Source: a virus (taxonomy: Duplodnaviria > Heunggongvirae > Uroviricota > Caudoviricetes). From it: a stretch of 4,475 nucleotides of DNA. The position numbers are program-made. This document shows positions 1 to 3,000 of this stretch, piece by piece (the first letter of the stretch is position 1; the number at the start of each line of letters is the position of its first letter). The stretch is from the IMG/VR virus record IMGVR_UViG_2654587685_000013. One strand, written 5' to 3'.

Positions 1-3000
1 CGGGGTATACCGGGTTTATCCTCGCAAACAAGAAATTTATAAGCGCAGTCCTGAGCAGCCGGATAATGTTCCAGGAATTGCCAGTGAAATTTTGCTCGAG
101 CACGGCGTTCGTCGCCAGCTTCAATGGCTGTGGCTACAGCCACAGCGCCTTCTTCCCTTGCTGCCAGCTCGTCAGGAATAGCGGCGCAAATAAAGACTTT
201 ACTCATTTTGTTTTAACCTCATTACAGATTTAAGGGTGAACAAATCCCTGCCATTGCTGGCATATAAAAATGAAACCGGATATTAATTACGGTGCTGTTT
301 TAAGTCCTGCCGGGATTTCGTTATTATCCTGGTGAATAACTTTATCGACCGGATAACAGTTACCGGGAATTTTCTGCTCCACTGCGGCAACCATGCATTC
401 TTTCATTGAGCCGTATACGCCAGTAACCATGTCAACCGGTTCACCGGAAACAAGAAAAACCGTCAGAACAAGTGCAAATGTGATATTCATTGCCAGTATC
501 CTTTTTGCATCAGGCGTAAACGGGCCAGCATTGAAACAATGCATATTTTATCCAATAGCTCCCGTTCGTGTTTTCTCTTGTTAATGGCATCTTCAGTAAA
601 TACAGGGTTACTGATTTTGACACCAATTTCAAAACAACCTTCAGACGTATTAACGTTTGGTAATAACGTTTTCATTATCGCACCCTCAACAATGAATTTT
701 GTGATGCGGTGCCTGGTGCCTCCAGGTGACGTTAACCAGTTAACAATTAACGCCGGATACAGAGCCCCACCCACAACACTGTTTTTGGTTTTAACTGTTC
801 CGCGTGCGCTTAGCCGCATTCACCGCATCACAAAATTCACTTTAAAAAGGACGGCAGAGCAGTCACGGAGTAAAACTGATACCGCCAAACGCCACCAGAA
901 AATTGATAACAGAGGGCGTTGCAGCGGGGTTGTCACTTAAGCGCATGGTCAACCTGACAACCCGGTGTCTCAATGGGGGAGGAATAACCCCGCCATACTT
1001 ACCGCCGCGCCATTTCGCGGAGTGCCACAACCGGAAGCGCACGGTCGACGAAAATTTAACGACAGGCTATCTATGAACCAACTACCTCGCCGTGCGCTTT
1101 CGCGTTATGCCCTGACTTTTCAGGAAAATGCCCTTTCAGCAAACTGTCAGTGCCGGATGCTCACCCGTGTCCGACGCACGCACTCCACCTCACCCGTGGA
1201 GAACCCCTTAATTACCAACCCTCAGGAGGGTGAAATGACTAGTAAAAATGTAAATATCCAGTTTAACCACGATGTTTCTCCTGCTGGACTTGCGGATGAT
1301 CTCACCGCTATAAAAACGGCAATTATGCTACTTGCTGCTAAGTTGCCTGCGTCATCAAAGCCAGCGGAAATTTGTGACTCATTGCGTAAGATGAATTCAA
1401 CAAAATGCAATGAGATGGCATCACTTATTGAAAGTGCAATTGATTTTAATGATTAATCGAAATTTCATGGCTAACTGTAACCCTCCCATCTGTGGCGGGA
1501 TGGTTTAAATCGCTGGGATTAATGCCGCACTCAGTAAAATGGTTCTTAAGGGGGTCTATCCGAATCCCTTTCTTTTTCATTAACAAGCCAAACCCCTTAT
1601 CAATGATGTCCATTAGATCCAGGAAGTATTTTTCATGTAAATCCTGGTTATCAGAGAGCTGCTTCTCTTCGTACAGACCGATAAAGGCACGACGCACGTT
1701 ACCGGATATAGTATCGATGGTTTCTTTTTCTACGGCACTCAGGTCAAGAGTCGCCAGTTGGGAACGAACTATATTCGCTGCCATTTCCTGGAATTGCATT
1801 GGTAAATCTTTAAATTCCATTATTAGCCTCGTTGGTTAGCTATTAACGTGGGTATGTAATCATTCTGGCAATGCTTAATGCCGCTGCTTTTTCCAGCCTG
1901 GTGATATCCTGCTCCAGAGCGGACAGATTTTCAGCCTGCTTAGCCCTGGCTTCATTGGCCCATTTCAGATCCTGCGCTGCATTAATTTTCTGGCGCATCC
2001 ACTCATAAAGTTCATCATCGGTATAGTCTGGCGCGATGATGACGGGTTCTCGTTTCTGCATACTGATTCCTTGCGGTGCTGTTTCCCCTTAACGCCGGGG
2101 TAGCGGAACAAAAACCTGCTGCATAGTTATTAAAGTTGAACCCTGCCGTCATGTTCTTACACCTCGGGCTGGCTACTTACCCCCTGACCACTGCCTGGTA
2201 ACTCGAAGTATTGCCCTGCATTCTGTGGGGCGGGGTGGGTTGGTATGTTGTTAAGGTAACAAGTGTTACCTTTCGAGTCAATGCAATGTTGCAAAAAGTA
2301 CATTTGAGGGCGTGAAAAACCCGCAATGAATGCGGGTTATGACTCAGTCTAAGTATTGATGTATTTGTGAAACTTTACCTTTAATGGTGTAACCACCATT
2401 CAGTTCGATGGGTTTGTAAAGCGGATTCAGTGACAACAGATAGATGTTTGGTCCGTCAATCGCAACTTTTTTTAGTGTTACGTTTGGCGTTCCTTCCAAT
2501 TGGATTAAGATTATTTTTCCCACCAGTTCTCTAATGTTACTTGAGCATGGTGTGATCAGCACGGTAGATCCGTCGGGGATGGTTGGGAGGCCGTTAGAGT
2601 TTGTCATCGCATCTCCCTCAACATGCAATAAAAAAGAGTTTTCAGCGGTTTTTGTCATGACATCAACCCAATTCTTAATACCAGGAATCTCGGTTACTGG
2701 ACAACTCATATCCCAATAACCAGCCTGTTCCCACGTTAAAACGGGCAACCGGGCGATGTTGTCACTAATGTAAAGGTACTGATTCAGACGCAGATCATCG
2801 GTTTTATCGTGACCGTCCTTTCCATAAAGAATCCATTCAGGAGATTTGGAAAGCAATTTTGACAGTAGATGCAAATTCTCACCGTCAGGTTTTGAAGAGC
2901 CATTTTCCCATTTTGTTACGGATACACGAGATATGCCGATTGCTTTCGCAACCTGCTGTTGGGTTAATCCAACGTCTTTTCGACGATTCCGAATACGTTC

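Follow-up and report, generated by a model that had tools for sequence, protein, structure and literature searches.

A small moron-like gene read against the dicBF operon of a Qin-like lambdoid prophage of Escherichia coli

Introduction

When a small gene lies head-on to a phage operon behind a long, hairpin-rich stretch, it has to be asked whether it is a gene at all, how much of the structured DNA in front of it is its own, and to which kind of accessory element it belongs. These questions are raised by a stretch of 4,475 nucleotides (nt) from the virus record IMGVR_UViG_2654587685_000013 of IMG/VR (Caudoviricetes), the whole of which we refer to as the window, and which contains a plus-strand open reading frame (ORF) of 73 amino acids (aa) running against its neighbours. 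The original prediction for positions 960-1456 was of a gene for a small soluble protein at the position that sieB takes in lambda, behind a private, GC-rich and structured leader of about 270 nt, the whole being a moron with a possible role in exclusion, anti-defence or regulation. We found that the 73-aa ORF is a genuine gene and an uncharacterised single-gene moron, inserted between ydfC and the DicF untranslated region of a dicBF operon and read against that operon, and that only the last ~85 nt upstream of its ATG appear to belong with it. For these gene and operon results, taken together with the general moron reading, we put the probability at roughly 0.7. The coordinates of all the features are collected in Table 1.

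Results

The features described by the original prediction are present, namely a plus-strand ORF at 965-1456 that would read as 163 aa, the 73-aa ORF nested within it from the ATG at 1235, and an AGGAGG ribosome-binding site at 1224-1229 that is strong and conserved. We regard the small ORF as a real gene, as had been proposed, because it combines this ribosome-binding site with a ratio of nonsynonymous to synonymous substitution rates (dN/dS) of 0.10-0.20 against the E. coli (92% identical), Salmonella (73%) and metagenome (65%) copies, a full-length match to PHROG 7249 (unknown function; residues 1-73 on positions 1-73 of 73, E = 7.8e-46) and an annotation by PGAP. The differences from the Salmonella copy fall 13/6/30 on the three codon positions, which is a third-position bias at dS above 1, and all relatives of the protein begin at the same Met. 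It may be noted that the longer frame behaves otherwise: in 965-1234 the variable columns are distributed 15/14/20 by codon position across seven variants and so lack a third-position bias, the homologues of this frame carry frame-shifting 1-nt indels, and protein family searches gave zero matches for it. A single conserved 163-aa protein from 965-1456 was therefore rejected, and the reading of a leader plus a small gene stands on that point.

The protein is predicted to be acidic (pI 5.2, grand average of hydropathy -0.05) and without a transmembrane segment, its 19-residue Kyte-Doolittle hydropathy reaching a peak of 1.27. An AlphaFold2 (AF2) model, confident once 13 sequences were aligned (mean predicted local distance difference test 82.8), has helices at residues 16-35, 44-52 and 56-68. 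On sequence grounds we thus take 1235-1456 (+) to be a genuine gene for a soluble three-helix protein, in agreement with the solubility predicted originally, and its family to be very small and found in phages only. The soluble three-helix model, the low hydropathy peak and the pI also rule against a toxin of the type I toxin-antitoxin kind. A Pfam-A scan of the protein at E <= 1 returned zero families, DinI and SieB included, so that the relation to DinI that had been suggested for it is dropped; an NCBIfam scan likewise returned zero families, and PADLOC-DB 2.0 at E <= 1 gave zero matches for the 73-aa, the 124-aa (convergent) and the ydfC proteins. Relatives with a solved structure were not found by sequence profile, the comparison of the model with known structures gave no informative fold, and the Foldseek match to Rip1 was non-significant (E = 6.8, template modelling score 0.32). 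A search of the literature found nothing on the gene, its protein accessions or its slot.

The stretch upstream of the gene has a different origin. The window is the immunity and early region of a Qin-like E. coli lambdoid prophage, and we identify the operon in it, by homology, as the dicBF (early-left) operon because DicF is matched, dicB, DUF1482 and ydfC are annotated, and 901-1220 is 95% identical to its counterparts in K-12 Qin and Tritos (a phage). The DicF match is complete (Rfam RF00039, model 1-52 of 52, 70.8 bits vs a gathering score of 48, E = 1e-14), and the DicF gene directly adjoins the upstream stretch of the 73-aa gene. The original prediction had overlooked DicF at 849-900 (-), dicB and ydfD after it, and the nature of the GC-rich stretch as part of a conserved operon. 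Over 781-1220 the alignment identity is 94.8% to K-12 Qin and 95.9% to Tritos, and in these two and in vB_EcoS-640R1 the homology (95-96%) ends at 1220 and runs straight into ydfC, the plus-strand gene being absent from the equivalent site. When 800-1600 was used as a query, some part of it was found in ~4,600 of the 5,426 complete E. coli genomes, mostly the upstream stretch, at a median of two places each. In K-12 the dicBF operon has a long untranslated region after ydfC which contains dicF, and RNase E and RNase III cut the transcript in this region, thereby releasing DicF (PMC5069750, PMC9438474). By homology, then, 901-1220 is the ydfC-dicF untranslated region on the minus strand, and since it matches a known operon region, most of the supposed leader belongs to the operon of the other strand. 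What remains of the ~270-nt leader is that the stretch is GC-rich, structured and non-coding; it is not private to the gene, with which only about 85 nt of it are shared.

The compositional jump described earlier was also found, 960-1234 having 56% G+C vs 38% in the 73-aa gene (42% in the 124-aa gene, 55% in the adjacent untranslated region and 46.5% in the whole window). The stretch 901-1240 folds better than its shuffles on both strands (z = -3.4 for the plus strand and -2.1 for the minus strand). A deletion variant of this region was observed in the E. coli genome GCA_014374305.1 (L015, 2972-3282), where window position 889 is fused to 1381: the loss takes in the 5′ 11 nt of dicF, the untranslated region in its entirety and two thirds of the 73-aa gene; dicF keeps its 3′ end and terminator hairpin, and the product is a chimeric 93-aa ORF (P0006).

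With respect to K-12, Tritos and vB_EcoS-640R1 the breakpoints of the insert lie at 1220|1221 and at about 1822|1823. The insert with both of its genes at >= 80% coverage was found in 88 of the 5,426 E. coli genomes, and since the two genes occur there jointly, the 73-aa gene has boundaries of its own. The 124-aa gene also occurs without it, in which case window position 1198 is joined to 1446. On either side of the insert, at 1212-1220 and about 1823-1835, stands one half of an inverted repeat (ACCAACC ... GTTGGT); as the K-12-type halves form a short hairpin just past the ydfC stop codon, the insert occupies the loop of that hairpin. At their 3′ ends the two genes overlap by 11 bp (1446-1456) as had been claimed, and a terminator is absent within this overlap, the only hairpin nearby being a weak plus-strand, terminator-like one at 1548-1581, inside the 124-aa gene, where the number of such hits is at chance level. 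The gene behaves as a moron, as had been proposed: its presence varies between collinear prophages, its G+C of 38% is unlike that of its flanks, and it is on the opposite strand in every phage context found. The enterotoxigenic E. coli (ETEC) O6:H16 strain 2014EL-1346-6 is 99.6% identical to the window across 800-1600. In IMG/VR at >= 90% identity we found copies in E. coli prophages only, and an exact-peptide scan of 185,579 representative genomes gave zero relatives.

A profile search of 1.84 billion representative proteins gave 17 matches at E <= 0.001, of which about ten are true relatives of 71-107 aa with the common motif ELxAIKxAIxLIAAKLP; the length, start and helix pattern of this family are kept down to 30% identity. 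The family genes were read in eleven distinct contexts (distant relatives at 30-73% identity), always on the strand opposite to their neighbours, and in all of them but one (Salmonella genome contig L012) the 3′ end overlaps the convergent gene. Ten of the 11 lie in early-left operons, in most cases next to an S24-type repressor; in the last one the gene stands between those for the Q antiterminator and the holin. Among the more distant members, too, a GC-rich hairpin precedes the gene by 60-115 nt, and its stems covary (GCCTG/CAGGC and GCCGGG/CCCGGC). The constant opposite orientation, the overlap and the upstream hairpin together fit a gene that is expressed independently of the lytic operons. 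In the late context (L049/L050) a strong operon-strand terminator at 3352-3378 (-) lies between the upstream hairpin and the holin gene; the moron of this context may have its place within the late leader, flanked by the late promoter and the terminator.

The extent of the leader was read from the copies in a Salmonella Muenchen prophage and a metagenome contig, both without dicF, in which DNA homology starts at 1151, 84 nt before the ATG. The last ~85 nt would thus be the only upstream part that belongs with the 73-aa gene, and this short leader, with a possible start-hiding structure, is plausibly the gene's own. Hairpin 2 is kept in Salmonella by two compensatory changes (CTCCAC/GTGGAG to CCCAAC/GTTGGG), and its G.U pairs are compatible with the plus strand only. 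The loop of hairpin 1 can pair with the spacer that separates the ribosome-binding site from the ATG. In a second leader type (17 loci) TTATCC pairs with GGATAA at this place, and in the metagenome copy TTTACCC pairs with GGGTAAA. In a 24-sequence alignment the covarying pairs of this loop-to-spacer helix are CG17/UA6 and CG18/UA5, with a covariation score of 0.121 vs 0.060 in shuffles (reached by 0 of 500), all slid controls being lower. A local stem is also predicted over the ribosome-binding site, and through these two elements of the 5′ untranslated region (UTR) a control of translation is predicted. Upstream of the leader, the -10 element of the candidate promoter reads TAAACT in nearly all other copies; the homologous position in the metagenome copy (L014) reads TAAAAT, and the scan finds a promoter-like site there. 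A 10-nt direct repeat, CTCACCCGTG, was observed at 1160-1169 and 1189-1198, in the loops of hairpins 1 and 2, and in a few prophage copies a deletion runs exactly from one repeat to the other, so that hairpin 1 lacks its 3′ arm and hairpin 2 its 5′ arm.

Several points weigh against a leader that works for the 73-aa gene. The loop-to-spacer covariation comes from just two or three independent haplotypes, the Salmonella copy pairs with a single mismatch, and in a few E. coli copies the pairing is lost; given so few independent events and these exceptions, the pairing in a plus-strand RNA is suggestive. None of the upstream promoters reaches the consensus threshold of the scan in the window or in most homologous loci, and in the window the candidate itself (TTTTCA-17-CAAACT) scores under it. 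The window copy, moreover, has three derived changes in this region: at 1140 the -10-like TAAACT has become CAAACT (T to C), unlike nearly all copies; at 1174 the 3′ arm of hairpin 1 (TCCGAC) has a C.A mismatch on the plus strand, which is a G.U pair on the minus strand; and at 1205 AACTCC has become AACCCC, with a weaker pairing to the ribosome-binding site. At four places in hairpin 1 a derived substitution leaves a G.U pair if the minus strand is read and an A.C mismatch if the plus strand is. Both hairpins are equally conserved in thousands of copies without any plus-strand gene, for which reason they may serve the minus-strand DicF precursor.

The hairpins at 1150-1201 could then act on the minus strand, in the processing, stability or read-through of the DicF precursor or the ydfC 3′ UTR, with the plus-strand gene merely adjacent. 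Such an explanation would account for the ~95% conservation of the hairpins in K-12-type prophages without the gene, for the four hairpin 1 substitutions that keep pairing on the minus strand only, and for the minus-strand fold, which beats shuffles too; also, the K-12 region is transcribed on the minus strand and is processed by RNase E and RNase III (PMC5069750, PMC9438474). It does not account for the same 85 nt accompanying the gene in Salmonella and metagenome phages that have no dicF, for the analogous GC-rich upstream hairpin with covarying stems of the distant family members, for a loop that pairs with the plus-strand translation start region, or for the pairs that only the plus strand allows, namely the G.U pairs of hairpin 2 and a conserved U.G in hairpin 1. 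An assignment of the working strand of hairpin 1 from G.U vs A.C was tried and gave a mixed answer, four substitutions favouring the minus strand, and one or two, together with the conserved U.G, the plus strand. The two roles are mutually compatible, and we consider an exclusively minus-strand role unlikely.

The same leader was found with other genes. A slot survey covered 154 loci with the stretch upstream of DicF. A plus-strand gene is absent from about 60 of them, and about 10 have the 124-aa gene only; in the others, the same leader with its ribosome-binding site is followed by a small plus-strand ORF, which belongs to one of at least eight unrelated types. The ORFs of the slot have sizes of 63, 64, 69, 73, 77, 80, 91 and 92 aa, the alternatives to the 73-aa gene starting from the position equivalent to 1235 (L004, L010, L058, L063, L065, L093, L176 and others). 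They match PHROGs 10348, 4987, 18692, 4274, 10133 and 2605, most of unknown function, with none for the 91-aa type, and PADLOC-DB 2.0 gave nothing of note for seven alternative cargo proteins. A homology of the 73-aa family to the 77-, 91-, 92- and 64-aa genes of the slot was rejected at hhalign probabilities below 1%. The convergent 124-aa protein varies along with the slot: its N-terminal domain of ~60 aa, which we call MEFKDLP after its sequence, is conserved, and the C-terminal parts in this family differ completely and are 50 to 150 aa long. Among ~85 loci with at least eight gene types, each plus-strand gene type pairs with exactly one MEFKDLP C-terminal variant, and no plus-strand gene stands in the slot without a MEFKDLP-family protein.

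This one-to-one pattern, the conserved N-terminus with wholly different C-terminal parts, and the overlap of the 3′ ends of the two genes would suit a cognate two-gene module in which the small protein is the antitoxin, immunity or inhibitor partner of the variable C-terminal domain, in the manner of a polymorphic toxin and its immunity protein or of a convergent toxin-antitoxin pair. We consider such a module improbable. The 124-aa gene often stands without the 73-aa one (in 10 of the 154 loci of the survey and in many O157 genomes), and the 73-aa family faces unrelated partners elsewhere, namely a 57-66-aa "ELKHVIALL" protein in four contexts (L013, L046, L047, L052) and ClpX-zinc-finger-like proteins in others. 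In L065 the ELKHVIALL domain is fused to MEFKDLP in a 133-aa protein and faces a different gene, that of 92 aa. It may be noted that this domain (ELKHVIALLLEDAKRLQQxEPNAGTEARI) was observed in two forms, as the C-terminal half of a MEFKDLP protein and as a stand-alone early gene convergent to the 73-aa family, so that the MEFKDLP N-terminal domain looks like a module fused to independent small early genes. Like C-terminal tails among the convergent partners are the antisense reading of homologous plus-strand gene 3′ ends, and the one-to-one pattern is explained if the stretch flanked by two conserved recombination anchors is simply linked as a block. Domains of the toxin, nuclease or antitoxin kind were not found, and with no toxin domain in any C-terminal variant and a partnership that is lost outside the slot, a polymorphic toxin/immunity pair was rejected.

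The whole of 960-1234 (270 nt) might still be a dedicated riboswitch-like leader or regulatory RNA of the 73-aa gene, as its non-coding frame and the plus-strand fold of 901-1240 would allow. We hold this to be very improbable, given that most E. coli prophages have 901-1220 in unchanged form and lack the gene, that homologues outside the dicBF context have the last ~85 nt only, that Rfam at E <= 1 gave zero families for the leader stretch, and that the promoter scan gave zero promoter-like sites near 960. Finally, that the 73-aa ORF makes no protein, being a chance ORF or an antisense RNA, could be argued from the tiny family and the want of a clear promoter and of a known function, and is highly improbable in view of the dN/dS, the strong third-position bias, the conserved length, start and helices, the strong and conserved ribosome-binding site and the confident AF2 model.

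Discussion

The results suggest a model for the expression of the 73-aa gene. From the weak promoter, transcription would begin near 1150, at the base of the hairpin 1 stem. In the 5′ UTR the loop of this hairpin would pair with the spacer that leads from the ribosome-binding site to the ATG; hairpin 2 would come next, and then the local stem at the ribosome-binding site. With the start region paired and the ribosome-binding site covered by a stem, translation would be held down until something opens the structure. Because the gene faces the operon, with its end lying within the 124-aa gene, it would be made in the lysogen while the repressor silences the operon; once the prophage is induced, head-on transcription and antisense pairing would shut the gene off. 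We infer this lysogen expression, and the shut-off by convergent operon transcription, from the orientation only, and to the expression model by itself we give an even chance.

For the 73-aa protein any specific function would be a doubtful assignment. Speculatively, it may bind another protein and thereby act in superinfection exclusion, in defence or in the control of an early phage function, and the occurrence of at least eight unrelated small genes behind one leader is, again speculatively, the pattern expected of an arms-race accessory slot. A bolder and quite unlikely proposal is that the position from MEFKDLP to the DicF untranslated region is a cassette-exchange hotspot of Qin-like lambdoid prophages, where one weak promoter and an 85-nt start-hiding UTR drive at least eight unrelated proteins of 63-92 aa, each coupled to a C-terminal variant of the convergent early protein that is specific to it, these being lysogen-expressed inhibitors matched to polymorphic early effectors and giving self-immunity or superinfection exclusion. 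If true, the RNA structure of the shared leader would act as a switch for matched small inhibitors.

What was described as a long structured leader is mostly the known precursor region of DicF, and the attribution is corrected accordingly. A very common E. coli prophage operon holds a swap site for many uncharacterised small genes, which provides a compact candidate set for exclusion, defence or regulatory proteins, and translation may be controlled through the leader that these genes have in common, with some support from covariation. Both DicF and DicB inhibit cell division and are toxic, and they have known roles in phage resistance and in the virulence of enterohaemorrhagic E. coli, so that head-on transcription into the dicBF operon could affect the tightness of their silencing.

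Other features of the window

The remaining features are given in Table 1. In addition, a sub-threshold match to STnc100 was seen at 659-851 (-) (38.6 bits vs a gathering score of 47, E = 5e-6), spanning the dicF-dicB spacer and the start of dicB. Right after the repressor gene, at 2311-2340 (-), there is a GC-rich hairpin with a T-run and a weak Trp-leader-like Rfam match (E = 0.22); it is probably the terminator of the repressor, ahead of a 280-nt region expected to hold the operon promoter.

Table 1. Features of the window and the basis on which each was assigned.
Feature	Coordinates	Strand	Basis or remark
73-aa protein-coding gene	1235-1456	+	PHROG 7249; PGAP WP_001394124.1 in the 99.6% identical ETEC genome
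Proximal leader travelling with the 73-aa gene	1150-1234	+	Conserved in Salmonella Muenchen and metagenome contig; fold z = -2.7
Hairpin 1 (predicted)	1150-1157 with 1170-1177	+	
Hairpin 2 (predicted)	1183-1188 with 1196-1201	+	
Loop-to-spacer pairing (suggestive)	1161-1166 with 1228-1233	+	TCACCC with GGGTGA, between ribosome-binding site and ATG
Weak sigma-70-like promoter candidate	1117-1145	+	TTTTCA, 17-nt spacer, CAAACT; predicted only
Insert relative to the K-12 Qin arrangement, 602 bp	1221-1822	.	73-aa and 124-aa genes; blastn and alignment
Convergent early gene, 124 aa	1446-1820	-	PHROG 6937; overlaps the 73-aa gene by 11 bp
ydfC-to-dicF long untranslated region, 5′ part of DicF precursor	901-1220	-	Homology to K-12 Qin and Tritos
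DicF small RNA gene	849-900	-	Rfam RF00039, 70.8 bits
dicB (62 aa), operon gene after DicF	487-675	-	Translation; PGAP annotation of near-identical locus
ydfD/DUF1482 gene	about 287-490	-	After dicB on the same strand; PGAP annotation
ydfC (72 aa), operon gene upstream of the insert	1843-2061	-	PGAP name in the 99.6% identical genome; PHROG 1744
LexA/S24-type repressor	2344-3060	-	cI of the LexA/S24 type, not DicA
cro-like gene, YdaT-like gene, replication gene		+	

Comparison with known systems

The gene sieB of lambda, P22 and Rac is a superinfection exclusion gene read against the pL operon, and SieB is a larger, membrane-associated protein. The 73-aa gene is likewise an opposite-strand gene in a lambdoid early-left operon, a likeness that rests on the established knowledge of lambda, and in this sense the sieB-equivalent slot of the original prediction holds as a position. 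It does not extend to the family, as the 73-aa protein is soluble, acidic and without a hydrophobic segment, and has zero sequence or family similarity to SieB (Pfam, E <= 1).

The closest relative of the operon is dicBF of K-12 Qin (ydfA-ydfB-ydfC, the dicF untranslated region, dicB and ydfD), with which the window agrees in order and strand from ydfC to ydfD and, at about 95% identity, in 901-1220 and DicF. The repressor and the cro-like gene of the window also lie on the same side as dicA and dicC. The window differs in its 602-bp insert between ydfC and the untranslated region, and in its repressor, which is a LexA/S24-type cI and not DicA.

Temperate phages and satellites have variable defence loci at hotspots such as those of P2 and P4 (PMC9122126), and Rip1 is a case of a single small prophage protein acting in defence (PMC13434031). 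The slot described here is likewise a fixed one with conserved flanks and many unrelated small prophage cargo genes, except that the cargo is of 63-92 aa with one common 5′ leader and zero matches to known defence families.

Phage morons, as described by Hendrix and colleagues, are single accessory genes between conserved phage genes, often expressed from the prophage. Like these, the 73-aa gene varies in its presence, is a single small gene of 38% G+C against 55% around it and has an orientation independent of the operon, and the positions are classic ones, namely the early-left operon for the gene itself and the interval from Q to the holin gene for a relative. Its own promoter and terminator are candidates only, being respectively the weak site and the chance-level hairpin. 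It departs from the morons in that its leader is common to at least eight unrelated genes, so that the locus looks less like a series of independent insertions than like an exchange of cassettes behind a fixed expression signal.

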